The translations under genes were made by a program, and so were the position numbers. Of a stretch of DNA of 14,415 bases, positions 40 to 9,348 are shown in pieces. Source of the stretch: a virus (lineage: Duplodnaviria; Heunggongvirae; Uroviricota; Caudoviricetes); the IMG/VR virus record IMGVR_UViG_2711768057_000001. One strand, 5' to 3'. Position 1 is the stretch's first letter; every line of letters starts with the position of its first letter. Under the pieces are notes generated by a model, which was not told the DNA's origin, ran no database searches, and was given only the letters and a program-made list of their open reading frames with translations.

Positions 40-402
40 GGGGCTGATTCTGGATTCGACGGGATTTGCGAAACCCAAGGTGCATGCCGAGGGGCGGTTG
101 GCCTCGTAAAAAGCCGCAAAAAATAGTCGCAAACGACGAAAACTACGCTTTAGCAGCTTAATAACCTGCTTAGAGCCCTCTCTCCCTAGCCTCCGCTCTT
201 AGGACGGGGATCAAGAGAGGTCAAACCCAAAAGAGATCGCGTGGAAGCCCTGCCTGGGGTTGAAGCGTTAAAACTTAATCAGGCTAGTTTGTTAGTGGCG
301 TGTCCGTCCGCAGCTGGCAAGCGAATGTAAAGACTGACTAAGCATGTAGTACCGAGGATGTAGGAATTTCGGACGCGGGTTCAACTCCCGCCAGCTCCAC
401 CA
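40..402 (+). ncRNA. ssrA: tmRNA (transfer-messenger RNA, SsrA), 363 nt
   Basis: Begins GGGGCTGATTCTGGATTCGAC and ends GGTTCAACTCCCGCCAGCTCCACCA (tRNA-Ala-like acceptor/T-arm with CCA). Contains the internal tag reading frame at 129-161. Matches my recollection of E. coli ssrA. Confidence 0.96.
129..161 (+). other. tmRNA tag-peptide reading frame encoding ANDENYALAA followed by a stop
   Basis: GCA AAC GAC GAA AAC TAC GCT TTA GCA GCT TAA read directly from the sequence; this is the canonical SsrA degradation tag. Confidence 0.9.
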
Positions 403-412
403 AATCATGATC
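385..412. repeat. attL: ssrA 3'-terminal core sequence, left junction of the integrated island
   Basis: CTCCCGCCAGCTCCACCAAATCATGATC recurs in imperfect form at 9323-9348 (CTCCGCCAGCTCCACCAATCATGATT). Confidence 0.75.
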
Positions 413-438
413 CGGATACGTCCGGTGAAGTACAGAAA

Positions 439-470
439 GCCCGCACAGCACAAGCCCTGCGGGCTTTTTT
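439..470 (+). terminator. Rho-independent terminator downstream of ssrA
   Basis: Stem GCCCGCA (439-445) paired with TGCGGGC (458-464), followed by TTTTTT (465-470). Confidence 0.7.
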
Positions 471-514
471 GTGTCTGTCGTTGTCCGAGAACATCCGGCT
501 AAATCCAGAGAAAA

Positions 515-543
515 TTGGTACACGTTTAGGTACACGCTATACT
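515..543 (+). promoter_or_regulatory. Candidate sigma70 promoter for int (TTGGTA, 17 nt spacer, TATACT), overlapped by GGTACACG direct repeats
   Basis: TTGGTA at 515-520 and TATACT at 538-543 with a 17 nt spacer. GGTACACG occurs at 517-524 and 529-536, with an inverted GTACCA at 560-565. Confidence 0.45.
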
Positions 544-585
544 GTGGTCCATTAAACATGTACCAATTATGGAAGGGATCCAGAT

Positions 586-1776
586 ATGGCGCGTATCACA
601 CGCCCCCTCACTAACAATGAAATCCTTAAAGCCAAACCCCGTGAAAAAGACTTCACCCTTCATGATGGTGATGGCTTGTTCTTGCTCGTCAAAACCACTG
701 GTAAAAAACTCTGGCGCTTCCGTTATCAACGACCGGGAAGCAGCAGCCGCACAAATTTGAGTCTCGGCTCATACCCTGCCCTTACACTCGCAGCAGCACG
801 TCAGATACGCGACCAGCACTTAATCACGCTTGCGCAAGGCATGGATCCACAACAGCAACAGGAGCAGGCGTCAGAACAACGCCAGATTGAGTTAGACAGC
901 ATTTTCTCAACAGTAGCTGCTAAATGGTTCCAGATTAAAAGCAGAAGTGTCACAGAGGATTATGCAAAGGATATTTGGCGTTCTTTGGATAAAGACGTGT
1001 TCCCGGCAATCGGTGCGATACCAGTTCAGGAGATTAAGGCCAGAACGATTGTTGAAGCATTGGAGCCAATAAAAGCACGTGGCGCATTAGAGACGGTTCG
1101 TCGCCTAGTCCAGCGTATTAACGAGATAATGATTTACGCGGTTAATACCGGTCTGATTGATGCAAATCCGGCATCAGGTGTTGGAATGGCATTTGAGAAA
1201 CCCAAAAAACAAAACATGCCCACGCTACGACCAGAAGAATTACCCAAGCTGATGCGTTCTCTGGTCATGTCAAATCTATCTGTTTCGACTCGCTGTCTTA
1301 TTGAGTGGCAGCTTCTGACCCTAGTGCGTCCTTCTGAGGCTTCTGGTGCTCGCTGGGTAGAGATCGATCTCGATGCCAAACTCTGGACGATTCCCGCCGA
1401 ACGAATGAAGGCTAAGCGTGAACACATTGTTCCTTTATCACCACAAGCATTAGAAATTCTGGATGTGATGAAACCTATCAGTGCTCATCGTGAGCATATT
1501 TTCCCGAGCAGGAATGATCCAAAGCACGCCATGAATAGTCAGACAGCAAATGCAGCGCTGAAACGTATTGGCTATGGAGGAAAACTCGTAGCCCATGGAT
1601 TACGCTCTATTGCCAGTACGGCCATGAATGAAGCTGGATTTAATGCTGATGTGATAGAGGCTGCTTTAGCCCATTCTGATAAAAATGAAGTAAGAAAAGC
1701 TTATAACCGCTCTACATATTTAGAACAACGTAAAGAGCTTATGTCATGGTGGGGAAGTCGAGTAAATAAAATATGA
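586..1776 (+). CDS. int: Tyrosine recombinase, P4-type integrase (396 aa)
   Basis: Full ORF with a GGAAGGG Shine-Dalgarno upstream. N-terminus MARITRPLTNNEILKAKPREKDFTLHDGDGLFLLV is typical of P4/CP4-57-type integrases, and the C-terminal catalytic region has HGLRS...Y. Position directly 3' of tmRNA fits. Confidence 0.9.
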   Translation: MARITRPLTNNEILKAKPREKDFTLHDGDGLFLLVKTTGKKLWRFRYQRPGSSSRTNLSLGSYPALTLAAARQIRDQHLITLAQGMDPQQQQEQASEQRQIELDSIFSTVAAKWFQIKSRSVTEDYAKDIWRSLDKDVFPAIGAIPVQEIKARTIVEALEPIKARGALETVRRLVQRINEIMIYAVNTGLIDANPASGVGMAFEKPKKQNMPTLRPEELPKLMRSLVMSNLSVSTRCLIEWQLLTLVRPSEASGARWVEIDLDAKLWTIPAERMKAKREHIVPLSPQALEILDVMKPISAHREHIFPSRNDPKHAMNSQTANAALKRIGYGGKLVAHGLRSIASTAMNEAGFNADVIEAALAHSDKNEVRKAYNRSTYLEQRKELMSWWGSRVNKI

Positions 1777-1813: not shown

Positions 1814-3712
1814 TTACTGCATATCGAGGAAGAATCTTGATGCAGGATGATATTTATAATCCCCCCAAGGCATCATTCTTTTTTCTGGATAAGTAACAAA
1901 AATCCAACGCCGAGATCGTGTTATAGCTACGAAAGCATTATTTCTTTCTTCATCTAGCTCGACTTTGCTCTTAGCTCGATAATCTGGAAAAACCCCCTCA
2001 CACATACCGATAAGGAAAACTATATCTTTTTCAAGTCCTTTCATTGTATGAACAGTACTTAACATAATCCCATTATTTAAGGTATCATCATTAAGCTGAC
2101 CCAAAGCAAGTGCATTCCTAAATGAGGATAGATTATCACCGAGGCCTTTACGTTTGAATCGTGTCCACATGGATTGAAGCTGCTCTATATCTTTAATCCC
2201 TGTGGCAATATCATCTTCTTTAGCAGAATCTTTGGTATTTGCTCCTAAATTCACCAGTTCTGATTTAATATCTAAACAGAACTTCAAAATATTAGGTGTG
2301 TCTACAGACATATGATCAATATGTGCTAAAACCAAGCTAATTAAATCTTTATCTAGGTTAGATGATTTTTTTATGTCAGCATAGACTTTGCTAATATCGT
2401 AGGTAACATCTGATTCTGGATTTAATTCTAAACCGATTAATTTATACAATCTCTTCCCATCAACCCAATCCTTTGGATTAACCTTAACCCTTATAGCAAG
2501 ATCGACTATTTTCCCAATAAGAGAAACAGGCGATTCATTTCTATCACTACGCTTTAGGAAATAAGGTATATTTCTTTTTTTAAGCTCACTTTCCATAGCT
2601 TTAAAAACAAATCTATTTCTACCTATAACAACAATTTTAGAGCAATCAATATCGCCCTCAATTTCTGGATGTCTTTTTAAATTCAGTATATGTTGAATGC
2701 TATCACAAACCCATATAGCTTCAGATTCTTCATCTGGTAAAGCATTAAAAGATTTATAGCCATCAAGAGCAGCATTAACACCAACTTGGCTATTTGGTTT
2801 TAATTTATTAGCTAATTCAATCACTGCTTTCGAAGATCTATAGTTCTCGTTTAAACAATAAATTTTAGGAGTAAAATCTTTCACGAATGATTTAATAAAA
2901 TAATCTGATGATGAACCATTAAAACCATAGATCATCTGGTCACTATCACCAACCATCATGACATCTTTTATTTTATCACCGCAGAGAACCTTTATAAATT
3001 CGTACTGAGCTCTGTTTAAGTCTTGAGCTTCATCAACAAATAAAGCAACGTATTTTTTTTGATATATTCTTGCTACTGAATCTTGATTTAATAGGATTTT
3101 ATGTGCATATAAAAGTATATCATCAAAATCCACACCACCACTTTCCAATAAAGCAGACTGATAATCTTGATAAATATTCCAAATACGCGGATTGGAACTG
3201 AATTTTATCTTTACTTCATCTTCAGTTAAAAGCTCTCTTTTAATAATAGAGAATACATTAAGATATTGACTTATAATTTTTTCACGATTGCGCTTTTCTC
3301 TAACGTCCTCAACATCTAAGTATTCATCAATATTAACCCCCTGTTCTCTTAAGGAATGTAGAAAAACCTCCATCCGATCTTGGTCACGTTCAAATATATG
3401 TAATTCTTTTGGTAACCCAATAGTATACCCATAACTTTCGAGTACCCTTTGTGCAACAGAATGAATCGTAGCAATCCAAATCCTATCACGATTTTCTGAG
3501 CCATCATCTAACCTTTCAAGCATTTCATCTGCTGCTTTATTTGTGAATGTTAAAGCAACCACACTTCCTCTAGCAGAGTTATTGAGAATGAACCTAACCC
3601 TCTCAGTAAGCACTCTTGTTTTACCAGACCCTGCAGATGCAAGAACTTGTATAGCCCCTCCCATAGGAGCTTTAACAACTTCAATTTGAGATTGTGATAA
3701 ATTATCAATCAT
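1814..3712 (-). CDS. gajB: UvrD/PcrA/Rep-like superfamily 1 helicase (632 aa), Gabija GajB-like
   Basis: SF1 helicase motifs read from the translation: I AGSGKT, Ia TFTNKAADEM, II VDEAQD, III VGDSDQMIYGF, IV NYRSS, V TVHTMKGLEKDIVF, VI VAITRSRR. Start ATG overlaps the upstream OLD-like stop (ATGA at 3709-3712). Confidence 0.8.
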   Translation of the reverse strand: MIDNLSQSQIEVVKAPMGGAIQVLASAGSGKTRVLTERVRFILNNSARGSVVALTFTNKAADEMLERLDDGSENRDRIWIATIHSVAQRVLESYGYTIGLPKELHIFERDQDRMEVFLHSLREQGVNIDEYLDVEDVREKRNREKIISQYLNVFSIIKRELLTEDEVKIKFSSNPRIWNIYQDYQSALLESGGVDFDDILLYAHKILLNQDSVARIYQKKYVALFVDEAQDLNRAQYEFIKVLCGDKIKDVMMVGDSDQMIYGFNGSSSDYFIKSFVKDFTPKIYCLNENYRSSKAVIELANKLKPNSQVGVNAALDGYKSFNALPDEESEAIWVCDSIQHILNLKRHPEIEGDIDCSKIVVIGRNRFVFKAMESELKKRNIPYFLKRSDRNESPVSLIGKIVDLAIRVKVNPKDWVDGKRLYKLIGLELNPESDVTYDISKVYADIKKSSNLDKDLISLVLAHIDHMSVDTPNILKFCLDIKSELVNLGANTKDSAKEDDIATGIKDIEQLQSMWTRFKRKGLGDNLSSFRNALALGQLNDDTLNNGIMLSTVHTMKGLEKDIVFLIGMCEGVFPDYRAKSKVELDEERNNAFVAITRSRRWIFVTYPEKRMMPWGDYKYHPASRFFLDMQ

Positions 3713-5484
3713 AGCTCAAGCCATCCCCTAACTTTATTAAATGCAATAATAACAGATTCCGGAAGTAATTCCTCAATTCTCTTTCCATTTGCATTCTGTG
3801 CTAGAATCACCCCTAAATACCCTGCATAACTAGCTTTTGAGTCACGCATTTTTTCAATTATAGCACTATCTTGTAAAGCCTCTATTTCTCTTTTCTTGGC
3901 ATCTCGATACCGTTCATTAGGACTAGCTTTGGTTTCACTTAACACTAATGATTCAATTATTTCCTCACGAATATTCAACTCGTTGTATAACTCAGCTTCA
4001 ATATCATTTGTTTCTTTGAGGAACTCTAAGGAGAAACAATCAGGATTCAATACGAGGCCATCTTCACGAACTAAACGTGCTACCTGACGGTTTATCTCAC
4101 CATGAGTATCACCATCATTATCACTAATAATACAGACAGGGATACCTAAATTACTTGCAAGTTTAATGAATGGTGGGTAATTTTTACCACTGACACTTAC
4201 ACAGTTAACTCCAACACTGAACATCGTCCTACCGAAATACAATTCAAACATGGATGGTATTAATTGTTCTTCTGTAACACCCTCACATAAAATTAAGGCT
4301 CGAGAGAAAAGCAACTCACCACGGGTTAACATTATCTCCCTTTTTAATGCATTTTTTTCATCATGTTCAATTCTTTTCTTCAGACAATTTACTGTTACTC
4401 CATCACCTTTCTTTATGAATGATCTTATATCTTCTATCTCAGCCATTGCGCTCAGGTATGGTGAATGAGTACTCAGTATAATTTGTCCCTGAGATGATGA
4501 TAACTGTTTAAACAAGGTTCTTTGTGCATTGGGATGTAGATGCGCTTCTGGCTCTTCAGCTCCAACAATTGGATGTAGCGCCTTATTTTCGAGCTCATGC
4601 CGCTCATGCATAAAGCTTAAAAACGATTGAACTGTAAGCATTGAAGCCCAACTTCTCGTCCCCGTGCCATGATATTCCATTGAAAATGAATGGTTTTCTT
4701 CATCTCCGAAATGTACTGTAAATTGCTTTGATAGATCTCGGATTTTTTTAGGGAAAGGAGTTATTTCTGTGTGGCTTGATCCTAGAAATGATTGGTTTAA
4801 CCCTTGAAGTGAATTTTTTAAGCTTTGAAGCGGCTCACTTCTACTCACTGCGGTTTCATTTATTGAACTTATCATTTCTTCAAGTGCAGTAACATCTTCA
4901 TCTTCATATTTAATATATGATAAGACCTTCCCTATATATGAGCTTTTATCTTTAAGCTCATGATGTATATCCCTCTGAGCCTCAATACAAATATAGGGGA
5001 TTGCATCAACTTTTGTTCTTACCTTTCTTCTCTCGTTGACAACAATGTCTTTCCATCCCTCAAACTCCCCCCATTCATTCAAATAATAACGTTGTGTATT
5101 AAACCCACCTTTTATCTCATCTGGCTGAACTTTTGTACGAATAGCCACAAACTCATGTCCATTTGCATCTACTGCAATATTATCACCGAAAACATCAATC
5201 CATTTTTCGTCAAACTCTTCTGTTTTATTACAATGTTCATCCGTAGGTATTATTTTTAAGTCAACGATAACTTCATTAACTTTTAATCCAGAACTATCTA
5301 TATGAAGATCTTCATCACTAAAGTAACGTTGGTAATCACCTAAAGCTAGTTGCAACGATTTTAGGAAAGATGTTTTCCCCGCATTGTTTGTACCTAACAA
5401 AACGGCAATACGTCCTAGCTCAACCTCAATTTCCTTTATACCTCTAAAACCTGAAATCCTAACAGAATTTATAAGAATTGACAT
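3709..5484 (-). CDS. gajA: OLD-family ATP-dependent nuclease (N-terminal ABC-type ATPase plus C-terminal TOPRIM; 591 aa), Gabija GajA-like
   Basis: Walker A GTNNAGKTS, Walker B-like IVGAEEPEAHLHP, H-loop STHSP, and TOPRIM motifs LILCEGVTEEQ and ISDNDGD. AGGAGG Shine-Dalgarno upstream. Paired in an operon with a UvrD-like helicase, the class 2 OLD/Gabija arrangement. Confidence 0.8.
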   Translation of the reverse strand: MSILINSVRISGFRGIKEIEVELGRIAVLLGTNNAGKTSFLKSLQLALGDYQRYFSDEDLHIDSSGLKVNEVIVDLKIIPTDEHCNKTEEFDEKWIDVFGDNIAVDANGHEFVAIRTKVQPDEIKGGFNTQRYYLNEWGEFEGWKDIVVNERRKVRTKVDAIPYICIEAQRDIHHELKDKSSYIGKVLSYIKYEDEDVTALEEMISSINETAVSRSEPLQSLKNSLQGLNQSFLGSSHTEITPFPKKIRDLSKQFTVHFGDEENHSFSMEYHGTGTRSWASMLTVQSFLSFMHERHELENKALHPIVGAEEPEAHLHPNAQRTLFKQLSSSQGQIILSTHSPYLSAMAEIEDIRSFIKKGDGVTVNCLKKRIEHDEKNALKREIMLTRGELLFSRALILCEGVTEEQLIPSMFELYFGRTMFSVGVNCVSVSGKNYPPFIKLASNLGIPVCIISDNDGDTHGEINRQVARLVREDGLVLNPDCFSLEFLKETNDIEAELYNELNIREEIIESLVLSETKASPNERYRDAKKREIEALQDSAIIEKMRDSKASYAGYLGVILAQNANGKRIEELLPESVIIAFNKVRGWLEL

Positions 5485-7356: not shown

Positions 7357-7428
7357 GTCAGGTCTCCTCTTCATTTCAATCTGAGGAGATTCTGCCGCGC
7401 CAGACACAACAACACGATTCATTGCCGT

Positions 7429-7446
7429 TGTGGCAAAAATGGCACA
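7429..7446. promoter_or_regulatory. TGT-N12-ACA dyad, candidate Ogr/Delta activator site of the late sid promoter
   Basis: TGTGGCAAAAATGGCACA lies about 75-90 bp upstream of the sid ATG on the minus strand; TGT-N12-ACA is the known recognition pattern of P2/P4 late promoters. Confidence 0.55.
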
Positions 7447-7533
7447 AACAGACCTTAAAACCCGGCTGGCCAGAGAAAGGTCTCAGGAAAACCTTACTCA
7501 CTGTTTGTTTTTTTACTAATAACTATTCACTAC

Positions 7534-7627
7534 TGTTCACCTTGAGAAAAAAGATAAGTAATACAGTTAATTAAAGGGTGAACAGTTGAAGGTCTGACTG
7601 TTCACCGTCTGTTCACCACTGTTCACC
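7534..7627. repeat. Iteron cluster: four direct copies of TGTTCACC (three at about 10 bp phasing) plus one inverted copy
   Basis: Direct copies at 7534-7541, 7599-7606, 7610-7617 and 7620-7627; inverted GGTGAACA at 7577-7584. The octamer is identical to the P4 type I iteron bound by alpha protein, as I recall it. Confidence 0.6.
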
Positions 7628-7709
7628 CTTCTGTTTTTCTCTGCCGATACCTTTTAGACTTTATTTCGATTAAAAATCGAAATATATAACTAAAGGAAAT
7701 AGAAATTGC

Positions 7710-7763
7710 TGCATTGTAATGCAGTGATTTGCATCTGTTTGCCAGCGTTTGCCTTTGTTTGCC
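7710..7763. promoter_or_regulatory. Palindrome TGCATT-GT-AATGCA followed by three helically phased GTTTGCC repeats; candidate operator upstream of vis
   Basis: Palindrome at 7710-7723; GTTTGCC at 7737-7743, 7747-7753 and 7757-7763, exactly 10 bp apart. Confidence 0.4.
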
Positions 7764-7892
7764 ATAGCGAAAAGTCAATGTTTGTTTCCATGAAAATCTC
7801 ACATGACCTGAGGAAAAATATAGACATAATAAGGAGCTACCCGAAGCCGGGCGGACACGACCGGCACAGTATGGACTTTATGAGGTAGCCCG

Positions 7893-8159
7893 ATGCACAC
7901 TGCTTTTTCTTCCCCGTCTTCTGCCCCTGCCGCGCCACTGATACCGGTCTCTGATGCCGTTCAGGAGCGATTTATCCGCCTGCCTGAAGTGATGCATCTG
8001 TGCGGCCTGTCACGGTCAACCATTTACGACCTCATCAGCCGGGAAGCCTTCCCGAAACAAATCTCCCTCGGTGGAAAAAACGTGGCGTGGGCGCACTCAG
8101 AAATCATGGCATGGATGACTGACCGCATTGCCGAACGTAACCGGGGTTATGACGCATGA
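7893..8159 (+). CDS. vis: AlpA/Vis-family helix-turn-helix regulator (88 aa)
   Basis: [48 protein letters not shown] matches the AlpA-family pattern (RLPEV...G.S..TIY......FP......V.W...EI..W). Position divergent from sid corresponds to P4 vis (orf88). Confidence 0.7.
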
Positions 8160-8194
8160 TGGTGACCATTCAGCAAACAGCCCCTTTTTCTGGC

Positions 8195-8224
8195 TTGCTT
8201 CCCTTCGCCGTTTCCAGGTATAGT
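8195..8224 (+). promoter_or_regulatory. Candidate sigma70 promoter (TTGCTT, 18 nt spacer, TATAGT), P4 PLE-like early promoter
   Basis: Hexamers at 8195-8200 and 8219-8224, immediately upstream of the seqA-like element. Confidence 0.35.
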
Positions 8225-8253
8225 TTTATCGCTGTCGCAAAATCGGCAGCCGG

Positions 8254-8279
8254 GCGTAGGAACCCGTGTAATTCACAGG
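8254..8279 (+). promoter_or_regulatory. seqA-like element (GCGTAGGAAC ... ATTCACAGG), upstream target of the immunity RNA
   Basis: Direct repeat of the element at 8461-8501 and complementary to 8416-8436. Confidence 0.5.
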
Positions 8280-8286
8280 CGACAAC

Positions 8287-8309
8287 AGACGCGCCATGCG
8301 TCTTTTTTT
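8287..8309 (+). terminator. Intrinsic terminator hairpin with a T7 tract inside the early leader
   Basis: AGACGC, loop GCCAT, GCGTCT, then TTTTTTT (8303-8309). Confidence 0.55.
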
Positions 8310-8384
8310 ACGTCGTTGCTCAGGCACACCCATTTTTCGGGCTGTGGTGCTTATCCCATAGCCCCTGTCAGATAATGGTGGTCC

Positions 8385-8440
8385 GGGCGGGGCAGCCTTC
8401 GGGCTGGCCGGTATTCTGTGAAGCCGGTATTCCTACCCCC
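8385..8440 (+). ncRNA. Candidate P4 CI-like immunity RNA core (seqB plus a UUCG-tetraloop hairpin); boundaries approximate
   Basis: Hairpin CAGCC-TTCG-GGCTG at 8393-8406. The 8416-8436 segment (CTGTGAAGCCGGTATTCCTAC) is the reverse complement, in bipartite form, of GTAGGAA and TTCACAG in the seqA and seqC repeats. Confidence 0.4.
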
Positions 8441-8460
8441 GTTCGGGTCACCACCCATGA

Positions 8461-8501
8461 GCGTAGGAACTCCGGTGGTGGCAATAACCGCTATTCACAG
8501 G
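8461..8501 (+). promoter_or_regulatory. seqC-like element overlapping the ribosome-binding site of the first early ORF
   Basis: GCGTAGGAAC at 8461-8470 and ATTCACAGG at 8493-8501; the Shine-Dalgarno AGGAGG at 8499-8504 overlaps it. Confidence 0.5.
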
Positions 8502-8512
8502 AGGTTGCCCTT

Positions 8513-8707
8513 ATGGCTACGACCCTCACCCCGTCACACCCGCAGTTTGTTTTTGTGTTTGCCGCCGTTCGTCGCGCCGACCGTAAACTCCGCATCTGTA
8601 TGCTTCGTACCGTTGCCGGTGATGAACACGCCGCACGTCTTTCCCTCGTTCGCGATTACGTCCTCTCGTTTGCTGGCCGTCTGCCGGTTGCGGAGGTGCG
8701 CGCATGA
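8513..8707 (+). CDS. Small early-operon protein (64 aa), hypothetical; positionally kil-like
   Basis: Internal ATG at 8513 with AGGAGG Shine-Dalgarno 9 nt upstream. The upstream 119 codons of the ORF-track call (8156..8707) cover the structured RNA region and are not credible coding. Stop overlaps the next start (ATGA). Confidence 0.55.
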
Positions 8708-9248: not shown

Positions 9249-9322
9249 GGGAGAAAATAACAATGAAAATGAATGTACGGAAAAATCCTTTATATTTAAT
9301 ACATTGAGAAATTTATTCAGAC

Positions 9323-9348
9323 TCCGCCAGCTCCACCAATCATGATTG
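9323..9348. repeat. attR: imperfect direct repeat of the ssrA 3' end, right junction of the island
   Basis: CTCCGCCAGCTCCACCAATCATGATT versus attL CTCCCGCCAGCTCCACCAAATCATGATC; the two copies differ by two single-base indels and one terminal substitution. Confidence 0.7.

Follow-up and report, generated by a model that had tools for sequence, protein, structure and literature searches.

The GGTACAC repeats at the predicted int promoter of a P4-like satellite prophage in ssrA are likely arm-type sites for its own integrase

We analysed a 14,415-nucleotide stretch of DNA (hereafter, the window), which is identical to the E. coli KSC9 chromosome from position 344920 onward. It carries the E. coli ssrA gene followed by a P4-like satellite prophage, in the gene order ssrA, int, GajB/GajA, psu, delta, sid, vis, Icd-like and DUF5375 (Table 1). 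The 3′ end of ssrA is the integration target, and the sequence CCGCCAGCTCCACCA is found exactly at 388-402, within the attL core, and again at 9324-9338. Judged from the sequence, the segment 385-585 is the int-proximal (P′) arm of attL of this P4-like satellite prophage in ssrA. Since the gene order of the satellite places the GGTACAC repeats between the core and int, they lie within this arm. Searching a phage collection with the DNA of the int region, we retrieved no close relative.

Between int and psu, at the P4 defence hotspot, the satellite harbors a complete Gabija pair on the minus strand (GajB 1814-3712, GajA 3709-5484), and in relatives a DRT3 or an AAA/HNH pair takes its place. Rfam matches to isrK and to the C4 antisense RNA (the P4 CI-type immunity RNA) were located at 8231-8308 and 8371-8458, inside the Icd/Ash-like ORF 8156-8707.

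Table 1. Features of the ssrA-int region and of the satellite prophage, in window coordinates
Feature	Coordinates	Strand	Basis or remark
ssrA (tmRNA)	40..402	+	ARAGORN; Rfam RF00023, 295.8 bits; annotated ssrA in E. coli KSC9
attL core (ssrA 3′ end, repeated at attR)	385..411	+	Exact repeat and relatives
Two RTCCR boxes, ATCCG 410 and GTCCG 420, in 10-bp phase beside the core	410..424	+	Candidate Vis/RDF sites; homologous boxes in P4 attP
Intrinsic terminator, hairpin and T-run, island-borne	436..473	+	Inverted repeat 436-445/458-467, 100% complementary; terminator scan
Three RTCCR boxes, GTCCG 483, ATCCG 493 and ATCCA 503, in exact 10-bp phase	483..507	+	Candidate Vis/RDF sites
P′1, proposed Int arm-type site TTGGTACACGTT, containing the -35 hexamer TTGGTA	515..526	+	Aligned with P4 arm repeat 3965-3954
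P′2, proposed Int arm-type site TAGGTACACGCT, in 12-bp tandem with P′1, filling the promoter spacer	527..538	+	Aligned with P4 repeat 3953-3942; pair also at attR of relatives
-10 hexamer TATACT of the predicted int promoter	538..543	+	Promoter scan; attL conservation
P′3, proposed inverted Int arm-type site (reverse complement TTGGTACATGTT)	555..566	-	Inverted repeat; equivalent to P4 3926-3915
Shine-Dalgarno-like GGAAGGG for int	571..577	+	Read from the sequence; kept in relatives
int, P4-family tyrosine integrase	586..1776	+	Pfam Arm-DNA-bind_3, Phage_int_M, Phage_integrase
vis, AlpA/Vis-family excisionase and regulator	7893..8159	+	Pfam Phage_AlpA
Remnant attR	9263..9346	+	blastn against the complete relative L004; core coordinates

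An earlier note on this DNA had pointed to a short sequence occurring twice across the -35 and the spacer of an int promoter, with an inverted GTACCA downstream of the -10. We find both copies of GGTACACG, at 517-524 and 529-536, with a period of 12 bp. The inverted element is also present and is larger than claimed, as a 16-nt arm at 513-528 (AATTGGTACACGTTTA) is complementary to 553-568 (TAAACATGTACCAATT) at 15 of 16 positions. The repeats occupy the interval 20-71 nt upstream of the int ATG. As a control, the segment 403-585 was dinucleotide-shuffled 2000 times. Of the shuffled sequences, 39 (2%) had an exact 8-nt direct repeat with its copies within 20 nt and one (0.05%) had an inverted repeat of at least 15/16, and none of the 2000 combined the direct repeat with an inverted repeat of at least 13/16. 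Elsewhere in the window there are ten GGTACACG-like matches against 6.1 expected, each with one mismatch and all in coding sequence; the sid-vis late-promoter region (7423-7892) contains no such match.

The set of relatives combined 80 IMG/VR loci, found by way of Vis, with 120 genome loci that matched the pair pattern. In the complete relative L004 (E. coli GF3-3), a further tandem pair (AATTGGTACACGTTTAGGTACAC) lies at attR, downstream of the alpha primase gene, and precedes a degenerate copy of the ssrA 3′ end. The same arrangement holds across the complete relatives. A tandem pair stands 82-83 nt before the core in 68 of 68 unique attR sequences, the attL-type core motif following this P-arm pair in all 68 relatives, and at attL the distance from the core to the pair is about 127 nt. 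Although they lack an inverted partner, the P-arm copies are equally conserved. Repeats on both att arms are expected of Int arm sites like those of P4 and not of sites for the recombination directionality factor (RDF).

In the ssrA-type elements the copies read either GGTACAC (W-a) or GGTATAC (W-b), and across the unique attL sequences (21 W-a, 12 W-b) they are invariant amid varying flanks. These data bear on the possibility that the repeats are a chance or hitch-hiking sequence without function. The promoter scan described below, which returned fewer matches than its shuffles, is in keeping with such a view. Against it stand the shuffles of 403-585, the invariance of the repeats at attL, the constant spacing at attR and the fact that all copies change in concert. 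The conservation data effectively refute a chance origin, and the probability that we still allow it is negligible.

The earlier note had also proposed a near-consensus sigma70 promoter, TTGGTA-17-TATACT, embedded in the repeats. The predicted hexamers do lie where they had been placed, TTGGTA at 515-520 and TATACT directly after the 17-nt spacer, and the transcription start of int is predicted at about 550-551. To call the promoter near-consensus was an overstatement, as the hexamers match the consensus at 9 of 12 positions and there is no extended -10. Performing a promoter scan, we find that this is the sole promoter-like match in 1-2000, and so the only one in the ssrA-int intergenic region, against 3.0 ± 2.0 in shuffles. 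With a 9/12 match and this shuffle count per 2 kb, the hexamer match alone is not above chance.

A -10-like hexamer follows the pair, 16-18 nt from the -35, in 24 of 25 unique attL sequences against 1 of 68 attR sequences, and the attL variants are TATACT, TATAAT, TAGGAT or TAAGAT; relatives have TATAAT at this position. The -35 is part of P′1 and hence is present at attR too. That the -10 is conserved specifically at attL supports a real promoter whose start would lie near 550, and upholds the idea of a sigma70-like int promoter set within the repeats. Relative to the predicted start, P′1 and P′2 would cover -35 to -13, and P′3, which is fully conserved in the W-a relatives, would occupy about +5 to +16 of the transcript. 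Control of int by a DNA-binding protein, another element of the earlier proposal, is implied by this predicted layout. An overlap of the pair with the best promoter-like match is seen in other Int types too, in slightly different registers. The best match in P4 is TTGAAA-18-CATAAT. As it is displaced about 16-20 bp upstream from the homologous register, the promoter position is not strictly conserved.

We also considered how transcription from ssrA might reach int. The native ssrA terminator was displaced beyond attR by the integration, and the island accordingly brings its own immediately past the end of ssrA, the 436-473 hairpin, which is conserved in all ssrA-type relatives. This terminator replaces the displaced one and insulates int from ssrA read-through. 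A different reading is that the sigma70 match is not a working promoter and that int is expressed by ssrA read-through attenuated at 436-473, as in ICEKp1; the segment 513-568 would then act as a 5′-UTR RNA hairpin affecting stability or translation, with the repeats still serving Int in recombination. ICEKp1 likewise has a P4-family integrase beside a highly expressed small RNA gene, with a stem-loop/terminator in between, and this element and others with P4-family integrases use the adjacent tRNA promoter and attenuating 5′-UTR stem-loops (PMC13023037). The position of the terminator between ssrA and int fits this reading, as does the folding of RNA 505-590 (-25.4 kcal/mol, z-score -2.9), and the hexamer match, as noted, does not by itself exceed chance.

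However, ICEKp1 has no attL promoter of its own and relies on read-through, whereas the hexamer conserved here at the right distance, at attL but in just one attR sequence and only as good -10 variants, points to a promoter of the element's own. Hairpin potential arises automatically wherever two protein sites stand inverted to each other, and the P-arm copies are conserved to the same degree without an inverted partner. Because the -10 is conserved, we rate expression by read-through as rather unlikely. The RNA hairpin as an explanation of 513-568 was set aside as well: the segment folds well, but this is inherent to inverted protein sites, and the attR copies would be left unexplained. No Rfam RNA family matched within 403-585.

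We also compared the arm with the attP of P4, using the P4 reference NC_001609 and its annotated "attP arm sequence repeat" features. These arm repeats were reportedly described by Pierson and Kahn in 1987. In int orientation, the P4 core is at 4097-4078, and TTGGGGGCATAA and TTGGGGGCATCT stand in 12-bp tandem about 113 nt beyond it. An inverted ATGTGCCCCCAA follows 15 nt past the pair at the start of int, and two further tandem copies are found on the opposite side of the core. When the window segment 380-600 is aligned with P4 attP, essentially no indels are needed, and the GGTACAC repeats coincide exactly with those of P4. The two sequences have the flanking blocks TCCGAG..TCCG..AAATCC in common but differ in the repeat cores, the P4 arm motif being GGGGGCAT instead of GGTACAC. 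The common layout is two 12-bp tandem copies and one inverted copy before int, and a tandem pair on the other arm, which is deleted in the window copy. A promoter-like element overlapping the pair and phased RTCCR boxes upstream of it are found in P4 as in the window, and the gene neighbourhood (psu, delta, sid, vis, DUF5375) is the same.

The two elements differ in several respects. The P4 Int is 36% and the P4 Vis 69% identical to those of the window, the target is leuX in P4 and ssrA here, the best promoter match of the window is shifted downstream by the distance given above, and the window copy is without the alpha primase and the P-arm sites. P4 attP has an IHF site in the region corresponding to the core-to-arm interval. 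In the window the terminator hairpin occupies this region; we found no IHF consensus with up to one mismatch between the core and the arm sites (400-520), and one weak match lies at 9309, in the P-arm remnant.

CP4-57 of E. coli K-12 occupies the same ssrA target, and its IntA is 60% identical to the Int of the window. Upstream of intA we find TTAGGCCCA, then TAGGCCCA 12 bp on, and an inverted TTGGGCCTAA, that is, the same layout, along with a terminator hairpin and GTCCxG boxes as in the window. It differs in its arm motif, in its AlpA, which is 39% identical to the window Vis, and in having none of the capsid and late-control genes of P4. The layout, with unrelated motifs, is shared by at least eight P4-family Int types, CP4-57 IntA among them: two direct copies with a 12-bp period, then one or two inverted copies, before int. 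The motifs by Int type are GGGGGCAT, GGTACAC, GGTATAC, TAGGCCCA, GGCACC, TGTGTATA, TGTATAG and GGGACCC. The GGTA(C/T)AC tandem and inverted layout was also seen with P4-family integrases of 33-46% identity (L091, L093, L125, L132, L174), whose hosts include a Helicobacter MAG, Ferrimonas and Aeromonas, and so this arm motif extends far wider than the ssrA satellites.

Int residues 8-94 correspond to the arm-DNA-binding domain (Pfam Arm-DNA-bind_3), the proposed reader of GGTACAC. The Int N-terminus matches PDB 3JU0 and 3JTZ/3RMP, which are solved arm-binding domains of P4-like integrases. DUF4102, now Pfam Arm-DNA-bind_3 and thus the family of the Int N-domain, is described in PMC8138268, which cites Szwagierczak 2009.

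The W-a/W-b split tracks a swap of the Int N-domain: between the two groups, identity is about 65% over residues 1-95 and about 90% over residues 96-390. The attR pairs comprise 31 CC, 38 TT and no mixed pairs. Among the unique attL sequences, the W-a Ints accompany 19 CC and 2 TT pairs, and the W-b Ints 11 TT, 1 TC and no CC. Three exceptions occur among about 50 cases (L046, L175 with a decayed int, and L094), and this co-variation of motif and Int is confounded by their physical linkage within attP.

The P4-like layout, the presence of the motif on both arms, its co-variation with the Int N-domain and its independence from Vis (below) together make Int itself the likely binder of GGTACAC, on the strength of sequence comparison. 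The best explanation, and in our assessment probably the correct one, is that the repeats are arm-type sites for the satellite's own Int with the int promoter built into them, which would result in negative autoregulation.

A few elements have mismatched ends. L040 (10803) and L023 (11608) carry a P4 (leuX)-type int on the left and a W-a P arm with an ssrA core on the right, while in L046 (11660) the Int is W-a and the P arm W-b. Hybrids, tandem arrays or misassemblies may account for such cases.

We also entertained the idea that GGTACAC/W-a and GGTATAC/W-b are naturally orthogonal pairs of site and arm domain, produced by N-domain swapping over the same ssrA core. If this were true, co-resident tandem elements would excise and regulate int independently, and there would be a one-base-pair specificity code for P4-family arm-binding domains. 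L046, L175 and L094, and also the W-b/W-b tandem L029, indicate that the separation of W-a from W-b is leaky at best, and we regard orthogonality as a doubtful, low-probability proposal.

The earlier note had assigned the repeats to a different protein, namely the Vis/AlpA-family product encoded at 7893, which would bind them as operators and repress or activate int in the manner of AlpA and intA. This assignment has a reasonable background. Vis is a helix-turn-helix protein of the AlpA family, and in CP4-57 AlpA reportedly raises intA expression, as is said to have been described by Kirby and Trempy in 1994; this activation is opposite in sign to the reported action of P4 Vis. Vis of P4 binds attP DNA and lowers Int expression (PMC2603039, PMC7286903).

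The assignment did not hold, however, when the relatives were compared. Vis proteins that are 93-97% identical to the window Vis, with residues 26-66 identical, are paired with five unrelated repeat motifs, and Vis therefore cannot specify the motif, which instead follows the Int N-domain. The motif is found on both att arms, like the Int arm sites of P4. RDF sites are direct repeats one helical turn apart (PMC7498355), unlike the 12-bp spacing and inverted copy of the GGTACAC repeats. Moreover, separate boxes in 10-bp phase, which are conserved along with Vis, adjoin the repeats. The CP4So/AlpA paper (PMC5148205) contains no AlpA-DNA binding data relevant here. We thus consider it very improbable that the GGTACAC repeats are Vis operators.

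The separate boxes have the form RTCCR, of which there are five within 120 nt against 0.39 expected. The group of three at 483-507 ends 8 nt before the -35, and its members are direct repeats about one helical turn apart, which the GGTACAC repeats are not. P4, CP4-57 and every Int type sharing Vis retain RTCCR boxes, so that the boxes follow Vis identity while the GGTACAC repeats do not. A Helicobacter relative has four ATTTCA boxes in the same place and phase. From this pattern we infer that Vis probably binds the RTCCR boxes at 483-507 and 410-424. It may act on the int region through these boxes, or at the level of the int mRNA, a mode of action proposed for P4.

Taking Int as the reader of the repeats, we propose the following scheme. 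The primary role of P′1, P′2 and P′3 would be intasome assembly for integration and excision. The -35 would lie inside P′1, the spacer would consist of P′2, the -10 would come directly after it and P′3 would sit just past the predicted start. With the promoter built into Int sites in this way, Int occupancy should occlude RNA polymerase. Int bound to the P′ sites would keep int expression low and self-limited, a negative autoregulation like that of P4 Pint and KplE1 PintS, and Vis, as the RDF at the RTCCR boxes, would direct excision and add to the repression.

The regulation of Pint by P4 Int and Vis was reportedly addressed by Piazzolla et al. in 2006. P4 Int binds DNA close to the Pint start and so represses this promoter, and Int is lowered by Vis as well (PMC2951348, PMC7286903). 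The P4 precedent for int control is repression rather than AlpA-style activation (PMC2951348, PMC7286903). In KplE1, IntS and TorI repress PintS via attL sites overlapping the promoter (Panis et al. 2010, PMC2951348). The KplE1 (CPS-53) arrangement resembles the window in that the int promoter lies inside attL, the P′ sites overlap it and the sites of the RDF (TorI) abut the -35. It differs in integrase lineage, in its RDF and in the sequences of the sites. The likeness to KplE1 is one of mechanism, the scheme having been experimentally tested for KplE1 only. Int binding and the repressive sign of the regulation should apply here by homology with P4 and by analogy with KplE1.

The copy in the window is not complete. 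A deletion, whose junction lies at about 9263-9283, has brought the core-proximal P arm up against the first ~20 nt of the alpha primase gene. Lost with it are the tandem Int sites of the P arm, the primase gene and crr (the cis replication region), while the attR core at 9321-9346 was kept. No second tandem pair was found in the window or in the 21 kb downstream of it in KSC9. With its P-arm sites gone, the satellite is probably immobile, in that it is probably unable to excise. For the same reason, the P′ sites of this copy can only regulate int or are relics.

P4 ori-type repeats are kept at 7586-7630 and 7728-7766 though the primase that binds them is deleted; they comprise several TGTTCACC copies, with GTTTGCC four times at 10-bp phase. 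Tandem arrays of different integrative elements are common at ssrA (L065, L188, L029, L038, L052, L063, L078), the attL arm of the next element lying within about 130 nt of the preceding attR.

In summary, the GGTACAC repeats on the int promoter are most likely an ordinary P4-type feature that follows the autoregulation scheme known from P4 and KplE1, and they reveal no new mechanism. The comparison corrects the assignment of these probable Int sites to the Vis/AlpA regulator, plausible as it was, and gives a functional attL map for the ssrA-targeting P4-like satellites and CP4-57. As such satellites carry defence systems (Gabija here), the assignment of each site to its reader matters for predicting their mobility. 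The relatives also provide a natural panel of arm motif/N-domain pairs, together with a candidate Vis box (RTCCR in 10-bp phase).
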